The notes beneath the pieces are model-generated. The model had not been told where the DNA came from. It saw only the letters and a program-made list of their open reading frames with translations, and searched no databases. The translations under genes and the position numbers were made by a program. From Patescibacteria group bacterium (GTDB lineage Bacteria; Patescibacteriota; Microgenomatia; UBA12405), in assembly GCA_013387215.1 (NCBI GenBank), contig WARW01000003.1:10227-74226 (forward strand): a DNA stretch of 64,000 nucleotides, given 5' to 3'. Numbering within the stretch: the first letter of the stretch is position 1; each line of letters starts with the position of its first letter. Below are positions 2,431-53,743 of the stretch, one piece after another.

Positions 2431-4206
2431 ATGAATATTTTAAAGTGGAACCTGGACGACATATTATCTGTTGAAAAATTTGATGAATTTTTTTGGGAAA
2501 TTCAAAATGATATTGGTTATTATCCACAACTAATTAAAAAACTAGACCCTCGAATGGAAGAGGAATTGTTTAAAGAGATAATAGATTTTGATGAAAATTT
2601 GAGCGAGAAAATTTCCAGATTGAGTTATCTGCCTCACTTAATGGAAACTACCAACCAAAAAGACCAGAAGGCTCAAATTTTAAAATCAAAAGCAGACCAA
2701 ATAATTGTTAGCTATGAGGAAGTTTCAAGAAAATTATTTCACTGGCTTAAGGGAAAAAAGGTTAACGAATTAGAGATTTTGGACAATAAAAATGCAGAAA
2801 GACTATTTGAATCGATTCCTGATTTGGAATTTCAACTTAAACATAATCGTGAAGCATCAAAATACGCTTTAAACGAATCTGAAGAAAACATAATTAGCAA
2901 TAAAAATATTAGCGGAATATTTGCAGTCAAAGATTTACGAAGACAAATATCAACTGGTTTTAGATATAAATTAAAGATTAAAAATCAAAAAACAAGAATA
3001 ATTAAAACACAAGCCGAATTAACAAATTTAGCGCACAGCTCTAAACCAGAAGAAAGAAAAGCGGCCTACTTAAGCTTGTTTAAAGAGTATGAAAAAAATT
3101 TAGATAAATTTTTTATAATTTATCAAGCAGTGGTTAAAGATTGGAATTATGAAGCAAAACTTAGAGGTTATGAAAGCGCCATCAGCATTAGAAATTTTAA
3201 TAATCATATTTCTAATGAAGTAATTGAGATGTTATTAAAAACCTGCAGTGAAAATAAATATGTTTTTCAAAAATATTTTAGATATAAAGCAAAAGAAATG
3301 GGGGTTGAGAAATTAAATCGTTTTGATATTTATGCTCCATTTAAGGCTAGGACTTATAAACACATAGAATTTAATAAAGCAAAAGAGTTGGTTTTAGAAA
3401 CATTTAAAGAATTTTCACCCAGTTTTTACAATCAGGCCAAAAAAATATTTGACGATAAACATATTGATTCCCACCCGAATCCAGAAAAAAGAAGCGGTGC
3501 ATTTTGTGCAACAATCAGTCCTAAAATAACTCCTTACATAATGATGAATTTTACAGGTGAAAAAAATGATTTATATACATTAGCTCATGAACTAGGACAC
3601 GGTATTCACAGTTTATTGGCAAATAATCATTATTATTCAAGTCAGCAGGCTACCCTACCTCTGGCTGAAACCGCTTCCACTTTATCGGAATTAATTTTGT
3701 TTGAAAAAACTTATAAAAATGAACACGATTCTAAAGTTAAAAAAACAATGCTGATTGACCAGATAGCAAGTTCTTATGCAAGCATATTGAGACAAAATTA
3801 TTTTGTGCTATTTGAAATTGAAGCCCATAAATTGATTAATTCAGGGTGCAATTCCAGCCAATTGTCGGAATTGTGGCTAAATACATTAAAGGAGCAGTTT
3901 GGGGATAGTGTAGAGGTGGATAGGGTTTTTAAAAATGAATGGGCTTATATCCCCCATATCTTTGATACACCATTTTATTGCTACAGCTATAATTTTGGAG
4001 AACTATTAAGTTATGCTTTGTATAGTAGATATAAAAAGGAAGGTTTAAGTTTTGTTTCTAAAATTGAAACGATATTGAAAAGCGGAGGTTCAGAGGATCC
4101 CGAAAAAATATTAATGAATGCTGGAATAAATATTAAGGATAAAAACTTTTGGCAGAGTAGTTTTGAGATAATAAATGAATGGCAATCTACATTAGAGAAA
4201 TTGTAA
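2431..4206 (+). CDS. pepF: Oligoendopeptidase F, M3B family
   Basis: 591 aa with HELGHGIHS (HEXXH) zinc motif and M3B-like length and organisation. Confidence 0.85.
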   Translation: MNILKWNLDDILSVEKFDEFFWEIQNDIGYYPQLIKKLDPRMEEELFKEIIDFDENLSEKISRLSYLPHLMETTNQKDQKAQILKSKADQIIVSYEEVSRKLFHWLKGKKVNELEILDNKNAERLFESIPDLEFQLKHNREASKYALNESEENIISNKNISGIFAVKDLRRQISTGFRYKLKIKNQKTRIIKTQAELTNLAHSSKPEERKAAYLSLFKEYEKNLDKFFIIYQAVVKDWNYEAKLRGYESAISIRNFNNHISNEVIEMLLKTCSENKYVFQKYFRYKAKEMGVEKLNRFDIYAPFKARTYKHIEFNKAKELVLETFKEFSPSFYNQAKKIFDDKHIDSHPNPEKRSGAFCATISPKITPYIMMNFTGEKNDLYTLAHELGHGIHSLLANNHYYSSQQATLPLAETASTLSELILFEKTYKNEHDSKVKKTMLIDQIASSYASILRQNYFVLFEIEAHKLINSGCNSSQLSELWLNTLKEQFGDSVEVDRVFKNEWAYIPHIFDTPFYCYSYNFGELLSYALYSRYKKEGLSFVSKIETILKSGGSEDPEKILMNAGINIKDKNFWQSSFEIINEWQSTLEKL

Positions 4207-4216
4207 TTAAGTGATA

Positions 4217-4234
4217 TAATTTACATGTAAATTA
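4217..4234. promoter_or_regulatory. 18-bp perfect palindrome TAATTTACATGTAAATTA immediately after a TGATATAAT -10-like box
   Basis: Seen directly. Perfect dyad symmetry. Lies upstream of the small peptide gene and the HK/RR operon; TGATATAAT sits at 4212-4220. Confidence 0.4.
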
Positions 4235-4240
4235 AGGGTA

Positions 4241-4275
4241 ATGTTTGTTTATTTCAAACATGAAGTTCATTTTTT
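4241..4275 (+). terminator. Weak hairpin (ATGTTTG-7nt-CAAACAT) followed by a T-run; possible pepF terminator
   Basis: 7-bp inverted repeat at 4241-4261, T5 at 4271-4275. The 8-nt gap between stem and T-run makes it a weak candidate. Confidence 0.25.
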
Positions 4276-4337
4276 ATTCATAATTATATTTTTTAATTAA
4301 TTGTTAATAATTAAAAAAATTAAGGTGGTGATAATAA

Positions 4338-4454
4338 ATGAAAAAATTAATGGAAGAAATATTAACAGATAAAAGTGCCCGAAACATGGCTCAAACAGAT
4401 GCTTTATCACTTGCTGTTGAAGAAGTTGGCGATCCATGGCAAAGTATTGCTTAA
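4338..4454 (+). CDS. 38-aa small peptide MKKLMEEILTDKSARNMAQTDALSLAVEEVGDPWQSIA; candidate signalling-peptide precursor (ComX-like)
   Basis: Not in the ORF track because it is under 60 aa. Strong SD AAGGTGGTGA at 4322-4331 with a 6-nt spacer to the ATG. A single Trp lies 5 residues from the C-terminus, and the gene sits directly upstream of the HK. Confidence 0.55.
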   Translation: MKKLMEEILTDKSARNMAQTDALSLAVEEVGDPWQSIA

Positions 4455-4485
4455 TAATTAAATTAAAACCTAGAAATTAAAACTA

Positions 4486-5961
4486 ATGCTAAAAACAATC
4501 ATAAACAAATTAATTTCTAGGTTTAATAATTACTTATTTAATTTTTCCCGGATAAGTGATGAAGATTTGAGGCGAAAGGCTAAGATTTTTAATATAATCA
4601 CTTTCTCTATTTTTTTATTGACTTTATATTCTCTTGCGACTTGGATATTTGGTTATTGTTTTATTGATAGATCTTCTGACAGAAATTTTAGCCACATAAT
4701 TCCAATTTTAGTACTTACACTATTGCCAATTATATTGTTAAAAGTTTCCTTATTAGGAAAACCAAGATTAGCAGCTTGGATATTAATATCATTACTATTA
4801 TTGGCTACATTAAGAACTTCTTTAATTTATGGTGTAAATGTACCAATGGCAACTGTAAGTTATGCGCTAATAATTTTTATGAGCGGAATCTTGGTTGGGC
4901 CATTAAGTGCTTTTTTATTAACAATAATAATTTTTGGTTGCTTGTTAAGCATTTTCTTTTCCCACACGTGGCATTTTATTGAGGTATATTCTGATTGGAA
5001 GAATAAATCTTCTGATATATCGGATATTCTGATATTGAATGTTATATATTTGGTCATTGCAATAGTGTCATGGTTATCGAGCCGAGAAGTTAACAAATCA
5101 CTTAAAAATGCTAATTTATCAGAACAGAAAGCTTTAATGTTGGCTGACAAATTACAAAAACAAAATGATGATCTGGAAAAAATAGTAGAAGAAAGAACAC
5201 AAGAACTTAGGGAACATCAATTAAAACAGCTGATGGAAATAAATACGTTGGCTGAATTTGGAAAAATATCAGCAGGATTATTACATGATTTGAAGAATCC
5301 ATTAACGGTAATTTCAATGAATTTAGACAGTATTAATGATTACGTTAAAGACAAAAATATTTTAAGTCAATCGGAATGGAAAAAATTAATCAACAATTCT
5401 TTATTAGCTTCCAGAACAGTGGAATCAATGGTCAGAACTTCGCAAAAGCAATTAATTAATGAAGATACTAAAGTATTATTTGATTTAAAAAAGGAAATTA
5501 AAAATACTTTAATACTTTTGAATACAAGAGCAAATAAGTTTGGGATAGAAATAAAATTTGTATGTAAAGAATCAATAAACATATTCGGTTGTCCAACAAA
5601 ACTGTCTAGAGTTTTAGCCAACCTAGTTGTAAATAGTATAGATGCTTTGAGGGATGCAAAAAGAGATTTTCCAAAAATAACTATTGAAGTTCAGAAAAAT
5701 AAAACTTCAATAGAAATTATGATTAAAGATAATGGCTGCGGTATTAAAGACGAAGACAAGAAAAATATTTTTCAAGCATTATTTAGTACAAAAAAAGAAA
5801 TGAATAATTCTGGTTTAGGCCTATTTATCAGTAAAACTATTTTGGATAGTTGTTTTAAAGGTACTATTAGTTTTAAAAGTACCTGGGGTGAAGGAAGTGA
5901 ATTTTTAATCGATATTCCGGTTTTAAAACAAAATGGAGCAAAAACTAAACAAAGTAATTGA
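4486..5961 (+). CDS. Sensor histidine kinase with an N-terminal 6-TM sensor domain lacking large extracellular loops
   Basis: About 6 TM helices in the first roughly 200 aa, coiled coil, H-box LLHDLKNPLTVI, then an HATPase_c domain with DNGCGI and GLGLFISK motifs. Confidence 0.85.
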   Translation: MLKTIINKLISRFNNYLFNFSRISDEDLRRKAKIFNIITFSIFLLTLYSLATWIFGYCFIDRSSDRNFSHIIPILVLTLLPIILLKVSLLGKPRLAAWILISLLLLATLRTSLIYGVNVPMATVSYALIIFMSGILVGPLSAFLLTIIIFGCLLSIFFSHTWHFIEVYSDWKNKSSDISDILILNVIYLVIAIVSWLSSREVNKSLKNANLSEQKALMLADKLQKQNDDLEKIVEERTQELREHQLKQLMEINTLAEFGKISAGLLHDLKNPLTVISMNLDSINDYVKDKNILSQSEWKKLINNSLLASRTVESMVRTSQKQLINEDTKVLFDLKKEIKNTLILLNTRANKFGIEIKFVCKESINIFGCPTKLSRVLANLVVNSIDALRDAKRDFPKITIEVQKNKTSIEIMIKDNGCGIKDEDKKNIFQALFSTKKEMNNSGLGLFISKTILDSCFKGTISFKSTWGEGSEFLIDIPVLKQNGAKTKQSN

Positions 5962-7807
5962 TAAAGGAATTGCCTTTTTAACTGATGAATTAGAAAAGAA
6001 TGTATATTTTGGATTTGAAAGCATATTTCCAATGATTTTGGTTTTTGATTGTCTTAATGAAATTGACAATAAAGGCAGCTACTTGATTAAAGCGAAAATT
6101 AAAAAAGTTTTATTGAAAGAGAAAAATGAATTATGGTCTTTTAATTATTGGAAAAGAAAATCGATAAAAAACAAAATAGAACCATATCCTGAGGATCTTG
6201 ATGATACATGTTTAGCACTTAGTGCTTTATATAGATTTGATAAAAAAGTTTTCAAGGGCAATGATCTTGCAAAAATAATTAATCTTTTAATATTGGCGGA
6301 AGAAAAGATAGGCGGCCCATATCGTACTTGGATATTGGCTAAAGAAAAGTCGGAAAAATGGAGTGATATCGATATTGCAGTTAATAGCAACATTGGATAT
6401 TTTTTAAAATTACAAAAAATTAAGTTAAAGAACTTAACTGAATTAATTGAAAATGGAATCATTAAAGACAAAATATATTCCCCTTTTTATAAAGGTGAGC
6501 TGCCCGTAATTTATTTTATTTCCCGTTTTTATAATGGGAAATTAAAAAATATTTTGAAAGAAAAACTTATCAATAAGGCAAATACTAGCGATTCGGCCTT
6601 AGATTTAGCTTTGATAATAAGCAGTTTAATCAGACTCGGTTATAAAAATATAAAAGAAGACTGGGTTAAGAAAATATGTACAAAACAATCCAAATCAGGA
6701 AATTGGATAGGTGAAGATTTTTATTTTTATGTAGACAAATTAAAACAAACTAATTTTATTGGTACTGAAAGCATTAGTACGGCTTTTATTTTGGAAGCTT
6801 TAACTTTATATATAAATCAAAAACTCAAATTTAAAGATCCATTGTTTTTAGAGATTAATGAGTTTAAAAAAGAAACAGTTTTCAGGCTAGAAAAAGTTTT
6901 TGAAAAGCATCCCGATAAATTAAAAAAGGAAATATTAACATTTATCAAAAACTTAGCTTCGAGCAGTGAATCAGAAATGATAATTGCGACGCCATTAATT
7001 GTTTTAAATTCTATCGATACGGAATTAAAGATCAAAATAACAAAAGATTTTATTGTCAAATTAGGACAAATTAATTTATTGGGATGGTGTGCATATACGA
7101 TTTACGACGATATTATGGACAGTGATTCTTCAGGAAAAATGATTCCAATGGCAAATATAATTTGCAGGGAGATGGAATCAATACTAGGCAGTCTTCCAAT
7201 AAACAAGGAAACAGGTTTTTTTAATTTTTCCAAATTTTTATTGCAAAAAATGGAAATAAGTAATTGGTTTGAACAGAATTATTTATGTCTTAACTCTAGC
7301 AATAATACAATCGATGAGTTTGATTATAAAAAGTTAGCCGATAAGTCTTTAGGACATGCATTGAGCTCAGTAGCAATTTTATGTTATTTGAAACAATCAG
7401 TAAGGTCTTTAGAGGTCCGTTATTTAATGAATTATTTTAGATATTTTATTGTTGCTAAACAGATGAATGATGACGTTCATGATTGGTTAGAAGATTTAGA
7501 AAAAGGCCAAATAAACAGTGCGAGTTATGGATTAATAAAATTTTTAGAAAAAAACAATAAAAGTATTTATAAAGAAATCATGAATAAAGAAAATTTAAAA
7601 TTAATTTTTTGGCAAAATATTGTTCCTGATTATTGTAATAAAATAATATATTTTTCAAATAAAGCGAAAAGAGCATTAAACCAATCCAGTTTAATTATCA
7701 ACAAACTATATTTATTGAATTTAAATAATAAGAATGTAGAATTATGTAGAATTGCATTAAAAGAAAGAAAAAATACATTAGACTTTATAAAAAATTACTA
7801 CAAATGA
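5933..7807 (+). CDS. Two-domain fusion: N-terminal alpha/alpha-toroid (terpene cyclase/prenyltransferase-like, PEDLDDTCLAL) plus a C-terminal isoprenyl-diphosphate-synthase/terpene-synthase-like domain (DDIMD and DDVHD); ComQ-like candidate
   Basis: 624 aa. DxDDT motif at about aa 87-92. The first DDxxD sits in YTIYDDIMDSD (aa 391-395, FARM-like), the second in QMNDDVHDWLED (aa 513-517, SARM-like), about 120 aa apart. Overlaps the HK by 29 nt and the RR by 4 nt, indicating translational coupling. Confidence 0.55.
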   Translation: MEQKLNKVIDKGIAFLTDELEKNVYFGFESIFPMILVFDCLNEIDNKGSYLIKAKIKKVLLKEKNELWSFNYWKRKSIKNKIEPYPEDLDDTCLALSALYRFDKKVFKGNDLAKIINLLILAEEKIGGPYRTWILAKEKSEKWSDIDIAVNSNIGYFLKLQKIKLKNLTELIENGIIKDKIYSPFYKGELPVIYFISRFYNGKLKNILKEKLINKANTSDSALDLALIISSLIRLGYKNIKEDWVKKICTKQSKSGNWIGEDFYFYVDKLKQTNFIGTESISTAFILEALTLYINQKLKFKDPLFLEINEFKKETVFRLEKVFEKHPDKLKKEILTFIKNLASSSESEMIIATPLIVLNSIDTELKIKITKDFIVKLGQINLLGWCAYTIYDDIMDSDSSGKMIPMANIICREMESILGSLPINKETGFFNFSKFLLQKMEISNWFEQNYLCLNSSNNTIDEFDYKKLADKSLGHALSSVAILCYLKQSVRSLEVRYLMNYFRYFIVAKQMNDDVHDWLEDLEKGQINSASYGLIKFLEKNNKSIYKEIMNKENLKLIFWQNIVPDYCNKIIYFSNKAKRALNQSSLIINKLYLLNLNNKNVELCRIALKERKNTLDFIKNYYK

Positions 7808-8484
7808 ATATACTATATATAGAAGACGATAAACAATTAGCCAAAACTATCCAACAAAAACTGATTTCTCATTACAATGTTGATATCTCTCCAACTGGTA
7901 AAAAAGGCATCATTTTAGCCGAGAATAAAGAATATGATCTTTTTATAATTGACTACTATCTGCCAGATCAAAACGGAATTCAAGTTTGTAAAAAAATTAG
8001 AGAGGTTGATACCAAAACACCAATTTTGGTTTTTACTACTAACGATACTAAAAAAGATGTGGTTGAAGCGCTTGATGCAGGAGCTGATGATTATTTGACA
8101 AAACCATTTTCTTATCAAGAGTTAGAAGCCAGAATCAGAGCACTTGTAAGAAGAAACAGTCGTAAGCAGCCAACCAAGCAGATAAATGTTGGCAAATTGA
8201 CTATTAAATTGGATGATCAATATATTGTTTTAAACAAACAATATATTAAATTGCCGAGGCAAGAATATATGCTTTTAAAATATTTGACCACAAATAAAGG
8301 AAAATTGGTTTCACGAGAGGAACTCTATGAACATGTATGGGGTAGAGATGATTACTATAATTCAAACACAATAGACGTCCACATAAGGCGTTTGAGAAAA
8401 AGATTAAAAGAACTTGTTGGAGAAAACTGCATTAAGTCGGTTTATGGAAGTGGATATAAAATATATAATTTTCAAGAAGAATAA
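7804..8484 (+). CDS. Response regulator, OmpR/PhoB family
   Basis: Receiver domain with D residues and LTKPF, plus a C-terminal winged-helix Trans_reg_C (LPRQEYMLLKYL...IDVHIRRLRKRL). Confidence 0.85.
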   Translation: MNILYIEDDKQLAKTIQQKLISHYNVDISPTGKKGIILAENKEYDLFIIDYYLPDQNGIQVCKKIREVDTKTPILVFTTNDTKKDVVEALDAGADDYLTKPFSYQELEARIRALVRRNSRKQPTKQINVGKLTIKLDDQYIVLNKQYIKLPRQEYMLLKYLTTNKGKLVSREELYEHVWGRDDYYNSNTIDVHIRRLRKRLKELVGENCIKSVYGSGYKIYNFQEE

Positions 8485-8614: not shown

Positions 8615-9262
8615 ATGAACGAAAAAATCAAAAAACAACTCACGGCATTTTTTAACAAATATAAACTTATAAAGTATAAAAAGGGTCAAATTCTTTTTAA
8701 ACCAGGTGAGAGAATTAATGGTATTTTATTTGATAAAAGTGGTTACGTAAGAGTCTACACTATCTCAAAAGAAGGAAAGGAAATTACACTACCAATGTTA
8801 AAACCTTTATTTTTCTGTTCTTTAGTCGATGCTTTATTGGGCAAAGAAAACAAATATTACATTGAAGCTATTAGCCCAGTGGAATTATGGCTGGCTCCAG
8901 AAAACGAATTTATGGATTTTATCAAACAAGATCCAGATCTTTACGATAAAATGACCAAATCTATGTTGAATGATTTTATGGATTTAACTAATAATGTTCA
9001 ACAGCTTATTTTTGGGGATGCATACACAAAGATTGCCAGTTTAATATATTCGATGTCAGAAAAATTTGGAGAAATGAAAGGCAAAGAAACCGTCATCGGA
9101 TTTAATACTCCCCACAGAATGTTGGCTAGCATGACTGGGTTAACCAGAGAAACAGTGACTCTACAAATCTTAAAATTACAAAAGGAAGGCTTTTTGTATA
9201 ATAAAGGCCGAAGAATTGTAATTAAAGATATGGAAAAACTCAAAGAAATTGCTCAGGTCTAA
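8615..9262 (+). CDS. Crp/Fnr-family transcriptional regulator
   Basis: cNMP-binding-like N-terminal domain and a C-terminal HTH (SMTGLTRETVTLQILKLQKEGFL). Confidence 0.75.
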   Translation: MNEKIKKQLTAFFNKYKLIKYKKGQILFKPGERINGILFDKSGYVRVYTISKEGKEITLPMLKPLFFCSLVDALLGKENKYYIEAISPVELWLAPENEFMDFIKQDPDLYDKMTKSMLNDFMDLTNNVQQLIFGDAYTKIASLIYSMSEKFGEMKGKETVIGFNTPHRMLASMTGLTRETVTLQILKLQKEGFLYNKGRRIVIKDMEKLKEIAQV

Positions 9263-9265
9263 TTT

Positions 9266-9700
9266 TTGGTCTATAATTTGTTTATGACTAGTTCAAGTAG
9301 GATTTACAGATCTAAAAATGAGTACATAATTGCCGGTGTTTGCGGAGGTTTGGCGGAACATTTTAATATTGATCCAACCATAGTTAGGATAATTTTTATC
9401 CTCTTAACTTTAGGTGGCGGGAGCGGAATATTAATATATATAATTCTGTGGTTGGTTTTACCTATGGAAGGAAAAAATGAGCCGGATGATTTGAAAGATA
9501 GAGTTAAAGAAATTTCAGAAGAGTTTAAGAATAATTATTCAAATAGAGAAAAGAGAGGTAACTTTTTGGGAATTATAATATTGTTGATTGGCGTAGTTGC
9601 TTTGTTGGACCAGATTCAACCAGCAATAATCAGATGGGATATTTTTTGGCCAGCCGTTTTGATTATGACAGGGTTGTTTTTGATATTTAGAAAAAGATAA
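9266..9700 (+). CDS. PspC-domain membrane protein
   Basis: YRSKNEYIIAGVCGGLAEHFNIDPTIVRIIF PspC signature followed by TM segments. Confidence 0.7.
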   Translation: MVYNLFMTSSSRIYRSKNEYIIAGVCGGLAEHFNIDPTIVRIIFILLTLGGGSGILIYIILWLVLPMEGKNEPDDLKDRVKEISEEFKNNYSNREKRGNFLGIIILLIGVVALLDQIQPAIIRWDIFWPAVLIMTGLFLIFRKR

Positions 9701-9892: not shown

Positions 9893-10279
9893 ATGATTAA
9901 AAGGATCCTAATAATAATTTCAATAATTGTACTTTATCTAATTCCTAAAAACATTAAATATGATAAAAAAACAAACCCTTCATTGGTAAATAATTCGCAA
10001 GTGATTGTTAGCCAAACCCCCTTAATAAGCAGCAGAGGTATCAAAATAAAAAATATAAATGCCCCTGAGATAATTGGTGTTAACGGAAAAGAAAATTTCT
10101 ATCCAGACCACAGCCTACCTATTAATATAAACAATATCCTATTGATTGGCTCTGCCATATTTATTAGTTCAGGAATTGGTCTTTTAGAAATAGACAATAT
10201 GGTGGCGAGAGTGAGAAATCTTGTTAATAAAATTAACTTTAACGGCTCTTTAGTTAAATTCATTAATAGAATATTATGA
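9893..10279 (+). CDS. Small membrane-anchored protein, first gene of the glucan-synthase operon
   Basis: N-terminal TM segment. Start moved to the internal Met (MIKRIL). Stop overlaps the next gene's ATG (ATGA overlap). Confidence 0.35.
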   Translation: MIKRILIIISIIVLYLIPKNIKYDKKTNPSLVNNSQVIVSQTPLISSRGIKIKNINAPEIIGVNGKENFYPDHSLPININNILLIGSAIFISSGIGLLEIDNMVARVRNLVNKINFNGSLVKFINRIL

Positions 10280-11463
10280 ACAAAAGAATTTTGGGCTATT
10301 TATTTATAGTATTAGGGATTGCAGTTTTTGGATATGTTTTGTATGTTAATAGCCAATACATTGATTTAACTCGGCCGTTTTCGTCATATACTTTGTTGAT
10401 TTCTTCATGGGAAAAATATAAACAAGAATTTATAAATAAAGACGGCAGAGTAATTGATTATTCCCAAAGCGGAATTACAACATCTGAAGGCCAAAGTTAC
10501 GCCATGCTTAGATCAGTATATATTGATGACAAAGGCGCTTTTGACCAAGTTTGGAATTGGAGCAAAATAAATCTTAAAAGACCAACTGATAATCTTTTTG
10601 GGTGGAAATGGGGTTTAACCAGTGATAATAAATATGGGTTTTTAGAAAATGGAGGAAGTAATTCAGCTGCCGATGCAGATACCGATATCGCTTTGGCACT
10701 AATATTTGCGGGAAAGCGCTGGAAAAATGATGAATATATAAACCAATCAAAAACAATCTTAAAGGATATTTGGGATAAAGAAACTGGAGTGGCTGCTGGA
10801 AAAAGATATCTGATTGCCGGGAACTGGGCAACTGATGGAAATATGCTAATTATTAATCCTTCATATTTTGAGCCATACGCCTGGAGAATTTTTGCCACAG
10901 TCGACAAAGATCATGACTGGAATAGTTTAATCGGCCCGGCTTATGCTTTATTGACAGATTCAGGAAAAAGTAATCTGGATAAAAATTCATCGGTGGGACT
11001 GCCTCCAGATTGGGTAGAAATTGATAAAACAACAGGTGTTTTAAAGGCACCAAGTTTTGCCAATTTAACCACAAATTATAGTTTTGATGCTATGAGAATT
11101 CCCTGGAAAATTGGATTGGATTATCAATGGAACAAAAATCAGGAGGCTTACAATTACCTGGCTCAATCATTTAAAAAAATATCGGAAATATATGCGACTG
11201 ATGGTAAGCTGCCAACATCACTGTCTCACGATGGACAAATAGTTCAAGATCAAGAAAATCCAACCATGTACGCAACTGCAATTGGTTATTTTATGTTGGC
11301 TGACCCCATAGCAGCAAAAAAAATATATCAAGAGAAAATCCTCAACTTATATTCCAACGACCAAAACATGTTCAACAGCAATCTTCCCTACTATGAACAA
11401 AACTGGTTATGGTTTGGTTCGGCAATTTACAACCACGAAATAAATAGTTTAAGCAATCAATGA
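10276..11463 (+). CDS. bcsZ: Glycoside hydrolase family 8 endoglucanase (BcsZ-like), membrane-anchored
   Basis: SEGQSYAML and AADADTDIALALIFAGKRW match the GH8 signature A-[ST]-D-[AG]-D-x2-[IM]-A-x-[SA]-[LIVM]...W. N-terminal signal anchor. Confidence 0.7.
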   Translation: MNKRILGYLFIVLGIAVFGYVLYVNSQYIDLTRPFSSYTLLISSWEKYKQEFINKDGRVIDYSQSGITTSEGQSYAMLRSVYIDDKGAFDQVWNWSKINLKRPTDNLFGWKWGLTSDNKYGFLENGGSNSAADADTDIALALIFAGKRWKNDEYINQSKTILKDIWDKETGVAAGKRYLIAGNWATDGNMLIINPSYFEPYAWRIFATVDKDHDWNSLIGPAYALLTDSGKSNLDKNSSVGLPPDWVEIDKTTGVLKAPSFANLTTNYSFDAMRIPWKIGLDYQWNKNQEAYNYLAQSFKKISEIYATDGKLPTSLSHDGQIVQDQENPTMYATAIGYFMLADPIAAKKIYQEKILNLYSNDQNMFNSNLPYYEQNWLWFGSAIYNHEINSLSNQ

Positions 11464-13010
11464 AATTTAATATAAACAAAGGCCTCCTAGAAAGAGGAAA
11501 AATTGATAAGTCGTTAATAGGGCTTAATTTGGCCATGACTGCTTTTTATTTTTCTTGGTGGCTGACACCGTCGCATATAGATAATAAGTTTTTATATTTT
11601 CTATTGTTTATAGGGGAAATTTATCATATTTTTATGGCCTTAACTTTTTGGCACACAATTGCTCCGGGGCAATTAAAAATTAAAAAAGTGAATAGATCTA
11701 AAAAATTCTTGCCTACAGTAGACATATTTATAACAGTAGCAGGAGAACCAGTAGAAATAGTAAAACAGACAATAAACAAAGTTTTGAACATGAACTATCC
11801 AAAATCTTTTATATATATATTGAATGATAGTTTAGTGGCTAAAAAAGAAAATTGGAGAGAGTATGAATATTTAGCTGAAGAAATGGGGGTTTTTTGCATA
11901 ACCAGAACCGTGTCTGGAGGTGCAAAAGCCGGCAATATTAATCATGCCTTAAAAATAACCACAGGCAAATTAATTGCCATCTTTGATGCCGATATGCAAC
12001 CAAGACCGAATTTTTTATCCAGATTAATACCCTATTTTAGAAACAAAAAGGTTGGTTTTGTGCAAACTCCTCAATATTATAAAAACTGGCAAAATAATTT
12101 GGTTAGCAGCGGCGCATGGGCCCAACAAGAGTTTTTTTTCGGCCCAATAATGAAAGGGAAAGAAAAAAGTAATTCGGCTTTTATTTGCGGAACAAATTTT
12201 TTGATAAGACGAACTGCTTTATTGGAAGCTGGCGGAATGCAGGAGAATAATATTGCAGAGGATTTTTTAACATCACTGTTTGTTCATAATAATGGCTGGC
12301 TGTCTTATTATGTAAACGAAGTGTTGAGTGAGGGTCTGGCTCCAGAAGATATGTTGTCATACTTTAAACAACAACTAAGATGGGCCAGAGGGTCATTGGA
12401 AATCGTATTTACTAGAAATAATCCTCTTTTCAAAAAAAGATTGAGTTGGCACCAAAGGATTGAATATTTATCATCATCTTTGTATTACTTTAATGGAATT
12501 ATAGTTCTAATCGATATTGTAATGCCATTGTTGTTTTTATTTTTTGGAATACGACCAGTAGCAGCTAGCTCCACCTCGTTTGCACTTTTCTTTGTACCTT
12601 TTATATTTTTAAATTTATATTCACTAAGAATGGCTTCTGCCGACAGAATATCCTTTCAAGCATTATCATTCACTCAGTCGTCTTGGACACTCCAAATTTT
12701 GGCTCTAAAATCAATTCTTTTAAAACAAAAAATGAAGTTTGAAGTTACTTCAAAAAGGGCTCTGACTGGAAACTACATAAACTTAGCTTATCCTCATATT
12801 ACTTATATTGTTTTAGCATTTATGGGATCGATCACAGCTGTGCTTAGAGAAGGAATTAACCCATCAGTAATAACAAACATTGCCTGGGTATTAGTAAATA
12901 CAATATTATTTATTCCATTTATTATGGCAGCTTATAAGGCTGAAGGTGTTCCACGACCCAAACTGGAAATCGATCTGGCAACTGAAAATGAAAGAAAACA
13001 TGTCAAATAA
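11460..13010 (+). CDS. GT2 processive beta-glycosyltransferase, cellulose-synthase (BcsA)-like
   Basis: Motifs FDADMQP (DxD), QTPQYY and QQLRWARG (QxxRW) with flanking TM helices. ATGA overlap with the GH8 gene. Confidence 0.75.
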   Translation: MKFNINKGLLERGKIDKSLIGLNLAMTAFYFSWWLTPSHIDNKFLYFLLFIGEIYHIFMALTFWHTIAPGQLKIKKVNRSKKFLPTVDIFITVAGEPVEIVKQTINKVLNMNYPKSFIYILNDSLVAKKENWREYEYLAEEMGVFCITRTVSGGAKAGNINHALKITTGKLIAIFDADMQPRPNFLSRLIPYFRNKKVGFVQTPQYYKNWQNNLVSSGAWAQQEFFFGPIMKGKEKSNSAFICGTNFLIRRTALLEAGGMQENNIAEDFLTSLFVHNNGWLSYYVNEVLSEGLAPEDMLSYFKQQLRWARGSLEIVFTRNNPLFKKRLSWHQRIEYLSSSLYYFNGIIVLIDIVMPLLFLFFGIRPVAASSTSFALFFVPFIFLNLYSLRMASADRISFQALSFTQSSWTLQILALKSILLKQKMKFEVTSKRALTGNYINLAYPHITYIVLAFMGSITAVLREGINPSVITNIAWVLVNTILFIPFIMAAYKAEGVPRPKLEIDLATENERKHVK

Positions 13011-15489: not shown

Positions 15490-18400
15490 TTATTTTTGAT
15501 TGAACTTGTAATAATTGTCAGCAAACTGACGAGGCACAAAATGCATCATATCGAGGCTGGTTAAGTTCTTTTTGGGAAGTCCGGTAATAATAATATTACT
15601 GCCAAAAAAATTGTTTATAGTGTCAAACTTTTTTTGAAAAAGCTTTTCTTTTATCATCATTCGAGCCTCATCGTAGCCAACATAAGTGGATAAATATTTA
15701 GTGCCAGCTACTTCATAATTTGTTTTAAGCGGATCGATAATTGATAATAATTGCTGCGGAATATTGGTTTGGTCATACAAATATATTAGTTTCAAATCGC
15801 CAAGAGCAGTTTCGGTAACTAATATATCACTTTTAGCGGTTAGATTGGCAAAAGATTTTTGATTAAAGATGTGATATTCATCGATCAAAGTTCCAGTTGG
15901 GGCAAGAATACCAACAATTTTAATTTTTGGCAGTCCAAAAAAGTTGGGTATTTCAGAACCAACACCTTTAATTAGGCCTTCTTCAATCATCATACTGGCC
16001 TCTTTAGATCCTAAAATAACATTATTTTCTCCTGATAAATCAAAGTTGCCTGCAGATAATTTTAAAGAGGATGGCAGATTGTCGACTCCTAAAATTAATT
16101 TAGGATTATTTTTGACAAAACCAATTTTTGAAGGATTATTTTTTAAAAGCTCATTTATTTCGGTTTTTATGGATGGCCGAGATTGGATATAGGCAACTAG
16201 ACCAGAATTGGATTGGGCATCAGCTCCCATTTTTGAAGAAAAGCTGGCAAATTCAATAAAAATAAGTAAAAAGAATGAAATCATCACAAAAGGAGCCAAT
16301 TTTGATATCCAATTAAACTTCCCTGGTTTGAAAAATTTTAAGGTTAAAGAGTTAGCCACCACTGAAACCGAAGATAAAGCCATGGCCAGACCTGCAAGTT
16401 CAGGTTTAAGAATTAAACCAATCCCCATCAAAGCACGAGCAGCGATGGGAATTCCCAGAATATTATAAAAGAGAGCAAAGAACATATTTTGACGAATTTT
16501 ACCTACGGTTTGGCGAGAAAGATCTATGGCTGTCAGAACTCCATTTAAATCATTACTGATAATGACAATACTACCTGATTCCATGGCGATATCAGCACCA
16601 CTACCCATAGCAATACCAAGATCAGATTGAGTTAAAGCAGGGGCATCGTTGATACCATCGCCAACCATAGCCACTTTAAAACCAGAATCTTGAAGTTTTT
16701 TGACTTCCTCCGCTTTGTTTTGAGGTAAAACTTCAGCTAATACATTGGTAATACCAAGCTGTTTGGCAATTGCGTCAGCAGTACGGTGATTATCACCAGT
16801 GATCATATATACAGCAATGCCCATTTTTTTAAGTTTGGAAACAACAGCAACTGAAGTTTCTTTAAGTTGATCGGCTACAGCAATTAATCCTAAAACTTTT
16901 TCTTTATTGGCGATAAGCATGGCAGTTTTACCATCATTCTCAAGCCTCTCCATATCATAAGAAGAAGTTAAGGGAATTTGATTCGCTTCCAATAGTTTAC
17001 GATTACCAACATAATAGGTTTGACCATTGACTACTGCTTTAACACCAGACCCAGGGATGGCCTGAAAATCTTCAATCGCATAGTTGATTGCCCCACAAGA
17101 TTGGCTATAACGAACAATCGATTCAGCCAAAGGATGTTCAGATTTTTGTTCGATTGAGTATAGAATTGAAAGAATTGTCTGATCACCTGGAAGATAGTTA
17201 ATAAAATCAGTTACTTCAGGTTTACCTTTAGTGAGAGTGCCAGTTTTATCAAAGACAATAGCTTCCAAATTTTGGGCCATTTCCAGCGGTTCGCCACCTT
17301 TAATTAAAACTCCATATTCAGCACCTTTACCAGTTCCAACCATAATAGAGGTAGGAGTGGCCAAACCAAGAGCACAAGGACATGCAATAACGATAACTGC
17401 CACAAAAGCTAATAAGGCGAAAGTTAAAGAAGACCCAAGCAAAAAGTACCAAATTACAAAAGTAAGGACGGCGATACTAATTACAGCTGGTACAAAAATT
17501 GAGGAAATCTTATCGGCAAAACCTTGAATTGGAGCTTTTGAACCTTGAGCATCTTCAATTAATTTGACGATTTGAGACAAAGCAGTGTCGGCACCAATTT
17601 TAGTGGTTTTAAACTCAAAAGAACCAGTCTTATTGATTGAAGCGGTATAAACTTTTGATCCAATTTGTTTTTCAACTGGTAATGATTCGCCAGTTAGAAT
17701 AGATTCATCAACAGCCGAGTAACCAGAAACTACTTCCCCATCCACAGGAATTCTTTCGCCAGGGCGAACAACAACAGTGTCGCCTACCATTACCTGTTCA
17801 ACAGGAATATCCACTGGTTGGCCATTTTTTAGAATACGAGCAGTTTTTGGGGCCAACCCCATTAATTTTTCAATAGCCTCAGAGGTCTTTCCTTTAGCTT
17901 TAGCTTCGAGCCATTTACCTAATGATACAAAAGTGATTAAGAAGGCGGCGACCTCAAAATAAAGATTGGGGATTTTGGAACCATTTAAGCCAATAAATGA
18001 ACCAGTTTCACTAAAATAATTAAAAAATTCAAATATGCTGTAAAAATAGGCTGTACTTGTGCCTATAGCAACTAAAGAATCCATGGAAAAAGTACGCATT
18101 TTTAAGGCTGACCAAAACCCAGCAAAAAAATTAGAACCAACGTAAAAAAGAACCGGAGTGGCTAATAATAAAGAGATCAATCCGGCGTATGGCATGACGA
18201 TGCTTTTAAATGGAACAGTATTGGTAAAATCGTAGACCATGAATAGAATCATGGGGATGCTTAGGATTAAACCGGTGAAGAATTTTGAAAACCAATATTT
18301 TATTTCCTGTTTTCTTTTTTCGTGCTGATTTTCTGTTTTTTCGTTAGGAAGCGAGGCTTTATAACCAGCTGCTTCAATGCTTTTAATCAAATCATCGATT

Positions 18401-18582
18401 TTGGCTGAACTAGGACTGTATACAACTCTGGCTTTTTCAGTGGCAAAATTAACATTAACCTCATTAACACCATTAACTTTTTTTAAAGACCGCTCGATAA
18501 GACCAGCGCAGCTGCTACAATGCATGCCAGTAATATCCAAATTTACGGCAATATTTTTTGTAGATGGGTTTTGATTTTCCAT
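15490..18582 (-). CDS. copA: Copper-translocating P1B-type ATPase with an unusual roughly 270-aa C-terminal extension
   Basis: N-terminal HMA domain (GMHCSSCAG), CPC motif in a TM helix ([11 protein letters not shown]), DKTGTLT phosphorylation site and [10 protein letters not shown] hinge. About 270 extra residues follow the last TM helices. Confidence 0.85.
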
Positions 18583-18584
18583 AT

Positions 18585-18803
18585 TTATAGAAGCTGGGCT
18601 GTATAGCCAGAATTTTTTATAATTTTTATTAAATCTTCTGAATTAAGTTTGTCAGAATCAAATTCAACAGTAACTAGTTTTGTTTCTAAATTAGCATCAA
18701 CAGAAATAACACCATTAGTATCTTCTAAGTCCATTTGAATTAATTTTGGACAGGAAGGACAATGCATGTCGGAAACTTTAAATGTATTTTTTTGATTAGT
18801 CAT
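18585..18803 (-). CDS. copZ: Copper chaperone, HMA domain (CopZ-like)
   Basis: 72 aa with an [10 protein letters not shown] metal-binding motif. Confidence 0.75.
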
Positions 18804-18811
18804 GTTGGTTT

Positions 18812-19249
18812 TTAATTAATAACTTCAAAAGTACCCGTGTACATGCCCATGGTGCAACTGAAACGATAGGTTCCAGGTGCAACTGGAGTAAATTCTTTTG
18901 TAACTTGAGAGTTAGGGATAAGATCAATTCGGTCTGAGAAAAGCCCGTGAGAAACAATACTTCCAGCGCAGCCAGCATTGCCAGATGAAGTAATTTGCCA
19001 AACCACTGGTATGTTGGCTTTAATTTTAAAATTGTTTGGAGAATAACCAGCAGCCGAAGCAGTCATCTTAACAATTTGTTTACCATCTACAACTTGAACT
19101 AAGTCAGGGCCAGAAGCTGCATTGGAAACAGAGGGGTGTTTTTGGCTAAATATGAAAAAACCAAAAACAACGATTAAAACTATCGAACCTAAAACATAAA
19201 ATAGATTAGAAATATTTTTCATAGTTTTTATTAATGATGACAACCACAA
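18812..19249 (-). CDS. Secreted cupredoxin-like domain protein
   Basis: N-terminal TM/signal segment. Its C-terminal domain is paralogous to the C-terminal domain of the 19231..20694 protein (GTYRFSCTMGMYTGTFEV vs GIYRFSCWMGMVTGTFEV). Confidence 0.5.
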   Translation of the reverse strand: MWLSSLIKTMKNISNLFYVLGSIVLIVVFGFFIFSQKHPSVSNAASGPDLVQVVDGKQIVKMTASAAGYSPNNFKIKANIPVVWQITSSGNAGCAGSIVSHGLFSDRIDLIPNSQVTKEFTPVAPGTYRFSCTMGMYTGTFEVIN

Positions 19250-20694
19250 CCTTTTGCACCAGATTCAATAATAGTTGGGGCTGCTCCAACAGAGTTGATA
19301 TTGCCTGATTTATCAAGCACTTCAAAAGTGCCCGTAACCATGCCCATCCAACAACTAAACCGATAAATTCCAGGAGTGTTGACAGTAAATTCTTTAACAC
19401 TGGTGGTTCCTGGAACTAAATCAATTTGACCGGAAAATAGTTGGCGGGAGATGATGGCATTAGTGCAACCACTAGTGCCCGTATCCTCTATTTCCCATTT
19501 AACAGGTATTCCAGCGCGAACTTTAAGTTTATTTGGAGCATATCCAGCAGATGAAGCTTTAATATGGATGATTTGCTTACCATCAATAATTGGAGGTAAG
19601 TCAGTGGCAATATTTTGAGATATGGTTTTAGGGGAAGTTAGAGATTCCAGATTAGAAACGCCTAAAACTGCCAATTGGGCATTTATATTAAAAAAGGCGA
19701 AGAATAAAACCAGAATTCCGGCAATTATAGAAAACTGCTGAGAAAATTTTGGATTAGAAAAAAGTTTAATACTGGTTAAGCCAATTGTGAGCAGGCCTGG
19801 TAGGGTGCCAATAGCAAATAAGCCCATGATTAAGGCACCTTGTATTGGATTACCAGAAGCTAATGCCAGTGCTTGGACTGTAATAGTAAAACCGCAAGGC
19901 AAGAAAAAGGTTAAAGCTCCCATAATTACCGGAGCAAATTTGCCAGTAAAATTAGACTCGTCTGAAAATCGGCGGGTTAAAGATTTGGGTAATTGAAGAC
20001 GAAATTTTTGCAGAGCTTTTATGCCAAGCATTTGTAAACCCAGAAGAATCATTAAGACAGATACAGCGATCACTAGGCTGGCTGAAAAAAGCGGCGTCAA
20101 TCTGAAGAAATTACCAATTTGGCCCAGAATGGCGCCAAAAGCAAGATAAGATAAAACCCGACCAGTATTAAACAAAAAGTGCGGTTGTAGTTTTTTGACG
20201 GTGGAATCGGAATTTGAATAAAGATTGTTCCATTGTTGAGACAAAGATAAAATAATACCGCCAACAAGAGCCGCGCAACTGGAAAAACCAGCGAGCAGAC
20301 CGAAAAGGAAAAACACAGGTAGAGAACTTTGTGCATTAACTGATATTAAAGAGGAAAATCCAGATTTACCTAATAAAATAAAAACTAAAATAAATAAAAG
20401 GCTAAAAAATAATGAAGAAAAAACATTGAGACGTTTTTTTTCTATTGGGCAAGAAACAGCTTTGGTGTTTTGTTTAGAAAATGGCTTGAGTGAAAACCGA
20501 TAGTTATCTTTTAAAAAGATATCGTTTAAATCTTTTAAAGATATTTTTATATTTCTTTTTGTTTCAAGAGATAAAGTTGACTTAGCTAAGGAAACCTCGG
20601 CTTTAACAACTCCTTGCTGCTTTAAAAGTTTCTTTTCGATTAGAATTTCACAAGAAGGACAATGCAGGCCAGAAATATAAAATAATTGTTTCAT
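19231..20694 (-). CDS. Fusion protein: HMA domain + DsbD/CcdA/MerT-like transmembrane domain + C-terminal cupredoxin-like domain + GCGCHH tail
   Basis: GLHCPSCEIL HMA motif. Multi-TM core with Cys residues in TM helices (SSCAALVGG, FLPCGFTIT). Cupredoxin-like domain. C-terminal Cys/His cluster. Start set at Met35 of the track ORF (MKQLFYISGLHCPSC). Confidence 0.55.
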   Translation of the reverse strand: MKQLFYISGLHCPSCEILIEKKLLKQQGVVKAEVSLAKSTLSLETKRNIKISLKDLNDIFLKDNYRFSLKPFSKQNTKAVSCPIEKKRLNVFSSLFFSLLFILVFILLGKSGFSSLISVNAQSSLPVFFLFGLLAGFSSCAALVGGIILSLSQQWNNLYSNSDSTVKKLQPHFLFNTGRVLSYLAFGAILGQIGNFFRLTPLFSASLVIAVSVLMILLGLQMLGIKALQKFRLQLPKSLTRRFSDESNFTGKFAPVIMGALTFFLPCGFTITVQALALASGNPIQGALIMGLFAIGTLPGLLTIGLTSIKLFSNPKFSQQFSIIAGILVLFFAFFNINAQLAVLGVSNLESLTSPKTISQNIATDLPPIIDGKQIIHIKASSAGYAPNKLKVRAGIPVKWEIEDTGTSGCTNAIISRQLFSGQIDLVPGTTSVKEFTVNTPGIYRFSCWMGMVTGTFEVLDKSGNINSVGAAPTIIESGAKGCGCHH

Positions 20695-20708
20695 ACTACG
20701 TAGTGTAG
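20695..20708. promoter_or_regulatory. Candidate operator, core ACTACGTAGTGTAG, directly 5' of the start codon of the HMA/cupredoxin gene
   Basis: A near-identical 14-nt core recurs at 21987..22000. It lies in the 23-nt gap between the BlaR1-like stop and the next start. Confidence 0.4.
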
Positions 20709-20717
20709 TAGATGTTT

Positions 20718-21626
20718 TCATTCTTTGCAATGGTCTGATAAAGAGATGTTTTGGTGAGAGAATAAAACTTCGACACATTTGACCAAATGGTTGCATTGAT
20801 AGAAAATTGTAGATTTACCAATAAAGGTAGTAGTAAACAAAATGAGAACCAATAAAAATGAATTTAGGGTAAAGAAGTTTTTGAAATTAGGCTTCTTTTT
20901 ATCAACTAAAACCGAAACGCGTTCATGAAATTCAGAAAAATTATTGAGATAAAAATTATTTCTTGTGTCAGGTTCTTCTATTTTTAACAGAGCAGAAACC
21001 AATGGTGTTTTTGATTTCAATTGAGTTTGGGCATAATTATCACAATTTATTTCTACCAATGCAGAATAATTTTTGAATATCCAGACTTTCTTTGGGAAAG
21101 AAGGTAAAAAGTGGTTGATTAAATCAACAATAAAATCTTTTAAAGGGTCAAAATTAAATTGATGTTTTTGTTCATGAAAAATAATCGCTTCCAATTCTTT
21201 TGGATTAACGGTTTTAATTAATTTTTCCGATATATAGATTTGAGGATTTAAAAAACCTGAAGTAAAGGCAATGACTTCTTTAATTTTGATCAAGTTATAC
21301 TGATTTTGTCTTTTTGATTTAAGGTTGTTTAAAAATTTTTTAGTTAAAAATATTTTATTAAAAGAATAATCGAGAGATTTAAAGAAGCGAAGTAAAAGAA
21401 TAAATAATATTATTCCGGATAAAACATTTATATAAAATGTCGAAGAAATAATTAAGGGAATTAAATTTTGATGATTATTTTTTAGGGCATCTATTAAAAA
21501 TATCAACTGCATCGAAAATCCAGAGAATATCTTTAAAAAGGCGAGTGATAAAAAGGATATGTAAAGAATTCCTAAAGTTAGGATGAATAAAAAAGCTAGA
21601 TTTCTTTGAAAACTGATTTTAGTCAT
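20718..21626 (-). CDS. BlaR1/MecR1-like M56 peptidase-domain signal transducer (antirepressor)
   Basis: 4 TM helices and an HEQKH (HExxH) zinc motif. Overlaps the repressor gene by 8 nt. Confidence 0.65.
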   Translation of the reverse strand: MTKISFQRNLAFLFILTLGILYISFLSLAFLKIFSGFSMQLIFLIDALKNNHQNLIPLIISSTFYINVLSGIILFILLLRFFKSLDYSFNKIFLTKKFLNNLKSKRQNQYNLIKIKEVIAFTSGFLNPQIYISEKLIKTVNPKELEAIIFHEQKHQFNFDPLKDFIVDLINHFLPSFPKKVWIFKNYSALVEINCDNYAQTQLKSKTPLVSALLKIEEPDTRNNFYLNNFSEFHERVSVLVDKKKPNFKNFFTLNSFLLVLILFTTTFIGKSTIFYQCNHLVKCVEVLFSHQNISLSDHCKE

Positions 21627-23420: not shown

Positions 23421-23493
23421 ATCAAGTAAATCAAATTATATAAATGATATAAGTGTTATATTAAATTTATCTTTTAAAAGCAATAGACCGTAA

Positions 23494-25023: not shown

Positions 25024-25068
25024 TAGGTGGTATATTAAACTGATAATTAAAAGTAATAGGCTGTTTTA

Positions 25069-26613: not shown

Positions 26614-26654
26614 TTAGGTTAATATATAAATAATATATTGAATAAATAAATTAC

Positions 26655-28196: not shown

Positions 28197-28209
28197 ATAA
28201 ATTTGAAAG

Positions 28210-31292: not shown

Positions 31293-31298
31293 AAACAG

Positions 31299-37914: not shown

Positions 37915-38178
37915 TTCTTTATCCAATTGATCAAATTGAAAATTTAAGATAGTTTCATTTGTGCCATCAAGATCTTTCATTAGCTGTTCATCAGTTTCTT
38001 TTATAGTTTGAATGTTGTTTTCTTGATTAATTTTTTCGAGTTTAGTGTCTATTTTATTATCGATTTTGTTTAATATTTTTAATTCTGTTTTATCTTTAAA
38101 GGAACAAGCAGAAAGAAAAATTGTAGAAAAAGCCAAAACCGGAATAATAATTTTGTATTTCATTAAATATGATAACAA
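37888..38178 (-). CDS. Small lipoprotein
   Basis: Signal peptide with a lipobox (FLSAC). Confidence 0.45.
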   Translation of the reverse strand: MLSYLMKYKIIIPVLAFSTIFLSACSFKDKTELKILNKIDNKIDTKLEKINQENNIQTIKETDEQLMKDLDGTNETILNFQFDQLDKELKSTEPTF

Positions 38179-45524: not shown

Positions 45525-45525
45525 A

Positions 45526-48213: not shown

Positions 48214-48316
48214 GTTTTAGGTCTGAATGATTGATATAATTTGTATAAACAGTGCCTTGTTAATATCTAACACTGTTTTTTACGCTTTTGTAAATTTTAT
48301 TTATATCTTGTAATAA

Positions 48317-53441: not shown

Positions 53442-53701
53442 TGGCTTTATGTTATCAACAAATTAACAAAGTTTAAAGCTCTTAATAAAATTAAATATTT
53501 ATATCAAGAATAGTAGTAGGTATTAGTAGGGAGAGTGAATAAGTGGAGTATTTTTTAATTTGACCGAAAATTTGGCAATTTTTAAATAAAATAGTGGTGG
53601 AAAGTATTAAAATGGTTGTAGTAGTGGTGAAAAAAGATGTTTTTATCTTATAAGGTAAACTTGAGTTTGGGTAAGTTTCGGGGGAAAAGACAAAATTAAA
53701 A

Positions 53702-53743
53702 TGTGGATAAGTTTGTGGATAAGTGGAATCCAAGTGTGGAAAA
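53702..53743. promoter_or_regulatory. Cluster of three DnaA boxes (TGTGGATAA x2, TGTGGAAAA) in the dnaA-dnaN intergenic region; oriC part II / dnaN regulatory region
   Basis: Seen directly. Two perfect reverse-complement TTATCCACA boxes at 53702-53710 and 53714-53722, and one 8/9 box at 53735-53743. Flanked by AT-rich sequence (53442-53700). Confidence 0.6.

Follow-up and report, generated by a model that had tools for sequence, protein, structure and literature searches.

A conserved Patescibacteria gene cassette that may make and sense a tryptophan-linked cyclic terpenoid peptide

Bacteria of the candidate phyla radiation (CPR), or Patescibacteria, have tiny cells, minimal genomes and few regulators; they are mostly episymbionts and largely uncultured. 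Here we ask whether four adjacent genes in one such genome, encoding a small Trp-containing peptide, a sensor histidine kinase (HK), a 624-amino-acid (aa) enzyme and a response regulator (RR), together make and sense a lipidated peptide signal. The genes lie in a 64-kb stretch of a Patescibacteria group bacterium (contig WARW01000003.1, assembly GCA_013387215.1), hereafter the window, in whose coordinates all positions are given. An earlier note on this DNA had likened the locus to the Bacillus quorum-sensing system ComQXPA. Our answer is that the locus probably encodes a signalling cassette of the RiPP type (peptides made by ribosomes and modified post-translationally), in which the Trp of the peptide would be prenylated, the attached chain cyclised by a class II terpene cyclase and the product sensed by the cassette's own six-transmembrane (TM) HK and OmpR-type RR.

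All four open reading frames (ORFs) described in the earlier note are present on the plus strand: the precursor peptide (38 aa, 4338–4454), the HK (491 aa, 4486–5961), the enzyme (5933–7807) and the RR (226 aa, 7804–8484). The HK and enzyme genes overlap by 29 nucleotides (nt) and the enzyme and RR genes by 4 nt, the RR start overlapping the enzyme stop (ATGA), again as described there. Several lines of evidence indicate that these genes belong together.

First, the synteny of peptide, HK, enzyme and RR, which the earlier note had proposed looking for, is conserved across CPR, with the RR varying in its position. Of 84 related loci, 78 have the HK gene immediately 5′ of, and on one strand with, the enzyme gene, at a median distance from HK stop to enzyme start of −4 nt; at least 62 have a neighbouring RR orthologue, which usually lies upstream of the peptide. 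The order RR, peptide, HK, enzyme is found in 55 loci. The order peptide, HK, enzyme, RR characterizes the window's clade (the window and the related loci L001–L004); in L001–L004 the peptides are recognisably homologous and the genes run M3 peptidase, small ORF, HK, enzyme, RR, Crp-like regulator, PspC. The RR is convergent downstream in 3 of the 84 loci, the peptide and HK are divergent from the enzyme in 2, and 11 have peptide, HK and enzyme without a detected adjacent RR, several of them ending upstream; in another 9 the contig ends before the peptide position.

The enzyme traces the distribution of the cassette. A scan of GTDB species representatives found its relatives in 358 genomes, the best 80 of which are nearly all Patescibacteria, including Saccharibacteria and Levy-, Davies-, Shapiro-, Roizman-, Morani-, Colwell-, Taylor- and Doudnabacteria; the family appears essentially confined to this phylum. 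At E <= 1e-3, an exhaustive HMMER search returned 3,212 representatives of clusters at 50% identity, of which 1,477 pass E <= 1e-30, and the top 150 matches are nearly all full-length in one stretch (573–770 aa, mostly 600–700 aa; P0201 and P0208 matched in two stretches). No account of such a cassette in CPR turned up in our literature search. Several loci carrying the whole cassette (L014, L017, L022, L043, L044, L052, L056 and L073) have non-CPR labels (for example 'uncultured Gammaproteobacteria', 'Vitreimonas sp.', 'Bacillota', 'Methylomirabilota', 'Sulfotelmatobacter'). These labels of metagenome-assembled genomes are probably wrong, the gene content and the 1.3–1.4 Mb contigs being CPR-like; if any of them is correct, the cassette occurs outside CPR.

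Second, the small ORF is a conserved gene with an unusual start. Its product, MKKLMEEILTDKSARNMAQTDALSLAVEEVGDPWQSIA, ends in ...EEVGDPWQSIA, as the earlier note had read it, and its Shine–Dalgarno (SD) sequence, AAGGTGGTGA at 4322–4331 (+), is indeed the strongest in the window, forming a −15.0 kcal/mol duplex with a generic anti-SD sequence (rank 1 of 56 genes; runner-up −6.2 kcal/mol). Most window genes have almost no SD, so the peptide gene stands apart; the organism appears to favour SD-independent initiation, to which the peptide is a striking exception. Orthologous peptide genes are likewise preceded by strong SDs, GGTGGTGA or GGAGGTG. Of 85 sources searched with a hidden Markov model of the peptide, 76 have a single copy next to the HK, so the ORF is not a chance one; the nine sources with no match are all contigs that end before the peptide position.

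Across 74 of these peptides (73 unique, 33–41 aa), Leu9, Arg15 and a Trp are invariant, the Trp being Trp34 in the window (4437–4439). This Trp is the only one in 72 of the 74, is preceded by Pro in 80%, as it is in the window, and is always followed by one to seven residues. The N-terminal 16 residues (4338–4385 in the window), with the consensus MKxLhKKhLTDKxARN, form a leader with a mean identity of 45%, compared with 21% for the core (residues 17–38, 4386–4451). Judged from the alignment, a conserved leader, a variable core and one fixed modification site are the anatomy of a RiPP precursor. The peptide has no Pfam or NCBIfam match. A known RNA in this region was considered and rejected, no Rfam family matching over 4000–4700, and so was a membrane protein, since only 17 of 62 cores are hydrophobic enough. 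The likeness of the GDPW tail to that of ComX, on which the earlier note had drawn, proved superficial because only (P/A)W is constant across the family.

Directly upstream of the peptide gene, at 2431–4206 (+), lies an M3-family oligoendopeptidase (Peptidase_M3, 6e-51) that could process or degrade the peptide. This neighbour is restricted to the window's clade (the window, L001, L002 and L004) and is not found in the other CPR loci.

Third, the enzyme consists of two domains, each with its catalytic motifs. The 624-aa protein itself has no Pfam or NCBIfam match, and its homologues, which are full-length, include some that match SQHop_cyclase_C, TED or Prenyltrans and one that matches Terpene_syn_C_2. 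The family alignment (A1) contains four invariant or near-invariant motifs, PYPDDLDDT (84–92), GGPYRTW (127–133), YTIYDDxxD (388–396) and QLNDDAHDWxxD (510–521), and an AlphaFold2 model built on it has a predicted local distance difference test score of 93 and a predicted template modelling score of 0.86.

The earlier note had recorded an extra N-terminal domain; the domain is there, and it can now be identified as a terpene cyclase of class II whose catalytic acid is conserved. This monodomain cyclase (5933..6832, +) has both the alpha/alpha-barrel fold and the DxDD-type general-acid motif of its class, the latter reading P86-E-D-L-D90-D-T92 in the window (6188–6208, +). Run against the PDB, the family profile finds bacterial drimenol synthase (9mhs_B, E 1.4e-14) and matches its class II cyclase domain, with PDDLDDT of the family aligned to PDDLDTT, and the Asp altered in the deposited D333N mutant of that synthase corresponds to the invariant D90. 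An N-terminal class II cyclase leads us to predict a cyclised terpenoid on the peptide: the lipid proposed in the earlier note is thus retained as probable, and its plain prenyl group is replaced. One study did not find squalene-hopene cyclase in CPR (PMC7306690). Three weaker relatives of the C-terminal domain, P0074, P0079 and P0080 (439–513 aa, one labelled Verrucomicrobiae), may be variants in which the N-terminal domain is reduced or different.

The C-terminal domain (6905..7804, +) is placed by the model within the all-alpha trans-isoprenyl diphosphate synthase (trans-IDS) fold, in keeping with the isoprenoid-synthase assignment of the earlier note, and class I terpene cyclases are absent from the top 60 structure matches. 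The first Asp-rich motif (FARM), D392-D-I-M-D396 (7106–7120, +), is an invariant DDxxD; the second (SARM), DDVHD (513–517), follows at a spacing of 121 residues, close to the 120 first estimated, and with its upstream Gln reads Q510-M-N-D513-D-V-H-D517 (7460–7483, +). The family keeps the register Q-x-x-D-D-x-x-D, with both Q510 and D513 invariant. Canonical IDS enzymes share this register (FQxxDDxxD), so the upstream Gln is a necessary feature of a Trp prenyltransferase and not a discriminating one. In Trp prenyltransferases, the Gln and the first SARM Asp have been proposed to recognise the indole NH (PMC13290415, section 2.4).

Two marks of a canonical chain-elongating trans-IDS are missing from the family: PF00348 is matched by 0 of 48 members, and the basic motifs that bind isopentenyl diphosphate (IPP), namely GKxxR, RRG after the FARM and GK after the SARM, could not be made out by eye in the alignment, the only conserved basic residues in the domain being R412 and K/R471. 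Up to E = 1, a profile of the prenyltransferase domain (A2) retrieved only further members of the family, with no ComQ or IDS among its matches. The kinship of the domain to ComQ-type enzymes is one of fold and motifs, and we predict from the model and the alignment that it acts as a Trp prenyltransferase.

Fourth, some cassettes carry what is plausibly a dedicated donor supply. A canonical short-chain polyprenyl synthase lies in or abuts the cassette in 15 of the 84 loci (PF00348 at 1e-55; nearest NCBIfam models GGPP synthase and IdsA), as expected if the cassette consumes a C15–C20 prenyl diphosphate. The presence of this separate IDS also speaks against a synthase role for the fused IDS-like domain. 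Clustering of the neighbouring ORFs revealed no further conserved partner, and no other conserved isoprenoid-pathway gene nearby; ABC transporters occur near the cassette in nine loci, at scattered positions.

Fifth, the two remaining genes encode a predicted sensor and regulator pair. By hydropathy, the HK sensor (aa 34–198, 4585–5079) consists of about six hydrophobic segments with short loops, the style that the earlier note had described and the commonest segment count among 62 HK orthologues. It has no Pfam match and is followed by a weak HisKA (PF00512, 5269–5433) and a HATPase_c (5593–5922) domain. The RR matches Response_reg and Trans_reg_C in Pfam and NCBIfam, which places it in the OmpR/PhoB family, as proposed.

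A candidate site for this regulator lies about 70 nt 5′ of the peptide start codon, where a direct repeat, TTCAT-N6-TTCAT, occupies 4266..4281 (+). This repeat, whose position relative to that codon is −69 to −75, matches at all ten positions in the window, L001, L002 and L003 and at 9 of 10 in L004, although the rest of the intergenic DNA has diverged and the flanking proteins of these five genomes are 40–57% identical. A 10/10 match occurs in 6.7% of upstream regions compared with 0.1% of background windows. The 11-bp period fits an OmpR/PhoB-type site and therefore suggests autoregulation; in the window's clade, the RR probably binds this repeat. Within the window the number of copies is not significant (2 observed, 0.78 expected), and a family-wide regulator box was rejected, the repeat being clade-limited and not enriched in the window. 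The other exact copy, TTCATTAGCTGTTCAT at 37976–37991 (+), may be chance or a second site for the regulator. A 12-bp palindrome without mismatches, TTTACATGTAAA, lies just past the stop codon of the M3 peptidase gene at 4220–4231 (+), between TTAAGTGATA and TTAAGGGTAA; it could be a regulator site, for example for the window's Crp-like protein, or part of a terminator.

We propose the following mechanism for the cassette. The 38-aa precursor would be translated at a high rate from its exceptionally strong SD, and its N-terminal leader (hhxxhLTDKxxR) would dock it on the 624-aa enzyme. There, the trans-IDS-like domain would use its two Asp-rich motifs to ionise an allylic prenyl diphosphate (C15 or C20), and the indole of the single invariant Trp would be alkylated, as it is by ComQ, PalQ and the P domain of ChrPC. 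The cyclase domain would then protonate the distal double bond through Asp90 of PDDLDDT and cyclise the attached chain to a mono- or bicyclic terpenoid; the product may be drimane-like, and the nearest solved cyclase makes a drimane from farnesyl. The lipidated peptide, possibly trimmed, would partition into or cross the membrane and be detected by the six-TM sensor of the co-transcribed HK, which would phosphorylate the RR. In the window's clade, binding of the RR to the TTCAT repeat would close an autoinduction loop.

Several observations weigh against this mechanism. Neither single-sequence nor profile searches with HMMER connect the C-terminal domain to ComQ, PalQ or any IDS, and the second motif is a true DDxxD, like that of chain-elongating synthases, rather than the NDxxx pseudo-SARM of ComQ and StheQ. 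No prenyl-diphosphate synthase is present in the 64-kb window, there is no conserved exporter or leader peptidase among the neighbouring ORFs, and the TTCAT repeat is conserved solely in the window's clade. Further, neither the peptide core nor the HK sensor is hypervariable. The earlier note had pointed to a ComX-type hypervariable peptide and sensor pair as a hallmark to look for, and we did not see one: the core is the most variable segment, yet it is 67% identical in close pairs (enzyme >=70% identical), and the HK sensor (33%) diverges at about the pace of the kinase domain (36%). The similarity of peptide cores is correlated with that of HK sensors, with enzyme divergence controlled (partial Mantel r 0.285, p 0.0005) or kinase-domain divergence controlled (r 0.297), in tests that are liberal for sequences sharing a phylogeny; for the core, the kinase domain and the RR give lower correlations than the sensor does, and the enzyme gives one of about zero. 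This pattern in the sequences points towards co-evolution of a ligand and its receptor.

A first alternative concerns how far the signal travels. With the same chemistry, the terpenoid-anchored peptide could stay in the membrane of the cell that made it, as a ligand or co-factor of that cell's own HK, reporting, for example, the supply of prenyl diphosphate (the undecaprenyl precursor) or the state of the membrane. The nearly complete embedding of the HK sensor in the membrane, with its short loops, would suit such a role, as would the HK–enzyme gene overlap, which suggests co-assembly, the lack of a conserved exporter or leader peptidase nearby and a core that, unlike those of pherotype-forming pheromones, is not hypervariable. 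Export of ComX is also unexplained, however, and needs no dedicated transporter in the locus (PMC4008528), and a conserved leader joined to a variable core is typical of RiPPs that are processed and released. We regard confinement of the signal to the producing cell as unlikely, while giving it more weight than the explanations that follow.

A different chemistry, which we consider somewhat more unlikely still, would make the 624-aa protein a bifunctional terpene synthase on the model of fungal PvCPS (prenyltransferase plus class II cyclase) and bacterial drimenol synthase: the IDS-like domain would elongate or bind a prenyl diphosphate, the class II domain would cyclise it, the free terpenoid would be the membrane component or signal that the HK senses, and the peptide would have a separate role. 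Such a synthase ought to show the basic IPP-binding motifs, which we could not see by eye, and the PF00348 match that no member gives, and the canonical IDS of the 15 loci would be redundant beside it. It would also leave unexplained a peptide with a conserved leader and one invariant Trp at every locus. Finally, an unmodified small-protein regulator of the HK, of the MgrB or SafA type, with the fusion enzyme as an unrelated output or accessory gene, is very improbable: small proteins that modulate sensor kinases are common and about a quarter of the peptides (the 17 of 62 above) have a hydrophobic middle able to insert in the membrane, but most cores are not TM-like, the sole invariant core residue is the target of every characterised trans-IDS-like peptide prenyltransferase (PMC13290415), and the enzyme gene sits within the cassette under translational coupling, not as a distal member of a regulon.

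Outside the cassette, the window contains several further gene groups. The RR gene is followed, at 8615–9700 (+), by a Crp/Fnr-type regulator (cNMP_binding and HTH_Crp_2) and a PspC/LiaF-TM membrane protein, both also present in L001–L004; Crp-like genes also occur near the cassette in the Saccharibacteria loci L025, L067, L079 and L080. At 10276–13010 (+), a GH8 glycosidase is accompanied by a GT2 cellulose-synthase-like gene, and in relatives PMT_2 lies beyond them. This cellulose-type exopolysaccharide locus, a few kilobases downstream of the cassette, is kept in L001–L003 and is a possible regulon target. A metal-handling cluster occupies 15490–20796 (−), with a copper-type P1B ATPase (HMA and E1-E2_ATPase) and a DsbD_2–HMA–cupredoxin fusion. 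It is followed at 22032–32831 by a tandem array of seven ORFs of 462–521 aa with hydrophobic N termini (one on the minus and six on the plus strand) and, at 32839–34227, by a PMT_2 glycosyltransferase. The two array members that were scanned belong to the sulfatase family (PF00884, 1e-36), and the array has the look of an expansion, specific to this lineage, of enzymes that modify the envelope. At 45499–51430 (+), a TraG/VirB4-like P-loop ATPase (904 aa) and, after it, a 1,037-aa protein with a C-terminal NlpC/P60 domain suggest a module for type IV secretion, conjugation or DNA uptake. At 52323–56796, genes that we take by eye, from their N-terminal sequences, to be dnaN and dnaA (minus strand) face rnpA and yidC (plus strand), and the replication origin is therefore probably near 55.1–55.5 kb.

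What would such a cassette mean for CPR? Tentatively, and with rather less confidence than we place in the mechanism, we suggest that this radiation has here its first conserved system for signalling between cells (or from symbiont to host surface), built on a Trp-linked cyclised-terpenoid pheromone, a previously unrecognised enzyme family of about 1,500 clusters and a dedicated membrane-embedded HK, and inherited across Saccharibacteria, Microgenomates, Parcubacteria and other CPR. If so, it would offer a testable handle on how these bacteria sense each other or their hosts, and would imply that reduced organisms spend isoprenoid precursors on signalling. It would extend ComX-style Trp-lipidated pheromones from Firmicutes to a very distant branch of bacteria. 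Natural-product enzymology would gain a large family of peptide prenyltransferase-cyclases, distinct in sequence and supplied with hundreds of natural leader and core pairs.

Known systems offer precedents by analogy: ComQXPA, PalPXQ, StheQX and the ChrPC and NctPC fusions. ComQXPA, defined by PF00348, PF05952, PF07730 and PF00196, has been censused only in Firmicutes (PMC4008528). Like our cassette, it comprises four adjacent, partly overlapping genes for an enzyme with the isoprenoid-synthase fold, a Trp peptide, a multi-TM HK and an RR. None of the four cassette proteins matches any of its four families, however, and the locus is therefore ComQXPA-like in logic and not in descent. ComQ is a single-domain protein of about 300 aa (PF00348 / IPR033965) that shares only its fold with the two-domain, 624-aa enzyme, and ComX (52–73 aa, PF05952, Trp within 5–10 residues of the C terminus) shares only the Trp feature with our peptides of 33–41 aa. 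ComP and ComA carry HisKA_3 (PF07730) and LuxR/GerE (PF00196) domains where the cassette has HisKA and Trans_reg_C, a difference that the earlier note had correctly drawn; a multi-TM sensor is common to ComP and the HK. The cassette further differs in its added cyclase domain, true second DDxxD, conserved leader, gene order and lack of a hypervariable peptide. In its core, the interpretation of the earlier note came through the computational checks put forward there; it is corrected on the nature of the N-terminal domain, on published precedents and on hypervariability.

Enzymes of the ComQ family at large combine an isoprenyl diphosphate synthase fold, a DDxxD FARM, an NDxxx pseudo-SARM, a Gln one turn upstream and an adjacent peptide with a Trp near its C terminus (bioRxiv 10.64898/2026.08.29.745113); of these, the window enzyme has all, with Q510 as the Gln, except the pseudo-SARM, in place of which it keeps a true DDxxD. 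PalQ of Paenibacillus alvei is encoded with an HK and a Trp peptide (PMC10853753). Both PalPXQ and StheQ–StheX of Sphaerobacter thermophilus place a trans-IDS-like Trp prenyltransferase beside its Trp peptide, with a conserved leader, a conserved Trp and a Gln upstream of the second motif, as in our cassette. PalX differs in its NHLP leader and strictly C-terminal Trp, StheQ has a pseudo-SARM, neither system has a cyclase domain, and the cassette has no detectable sequence similarity to either. For the cyclase, the structural relative AsDMS (PDB 9mhs, 9m7d-f) is fused to a HAD phosphatase and acts on free farnesyl diphosphate, whereas the cyclase of the cassette is fused to a trans-IDS-like domain in a gene tied to a peptide.

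ChrPC was reportedly described by Hubrich et al. 2024, Chem 10:3224. According to a review, ChrPC and NctPC are maturases of terpenoid RiPPs that join a peptide prenyltransferase to a class II cyclase of the MstE-like kind; they prenylate an internal Trp and then cyclise the chain, and the P domain of ChrPC is trans-IDS-like (PMC13290415). Going by this published description, the same two catalytic modules are present in the window enzyme, which makes ChrPC and NctPC the most relevant precedents. The architecture, which the earlier note had called novel partly for its added domain, is less unprecedented than that, since these fusions (PMC13290415) and, for an HK beside a Trp peptide and a prenyltransferase, PalPXQ (PMC10853753) have been published. 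In the cassette the cyclase is N-terminal and the enzyme belongs to an HK and RR cassette in Patescibacteria; the review mentions neither a two-component system nor CPR organisms for ChrPC (PMC13290415). The cassette thus combines the circuit logic of ComQXPA and PalPXQ with predicted chemistry of the ChrPC type, and is notable for its conservation across a radiation of reduced genomes.

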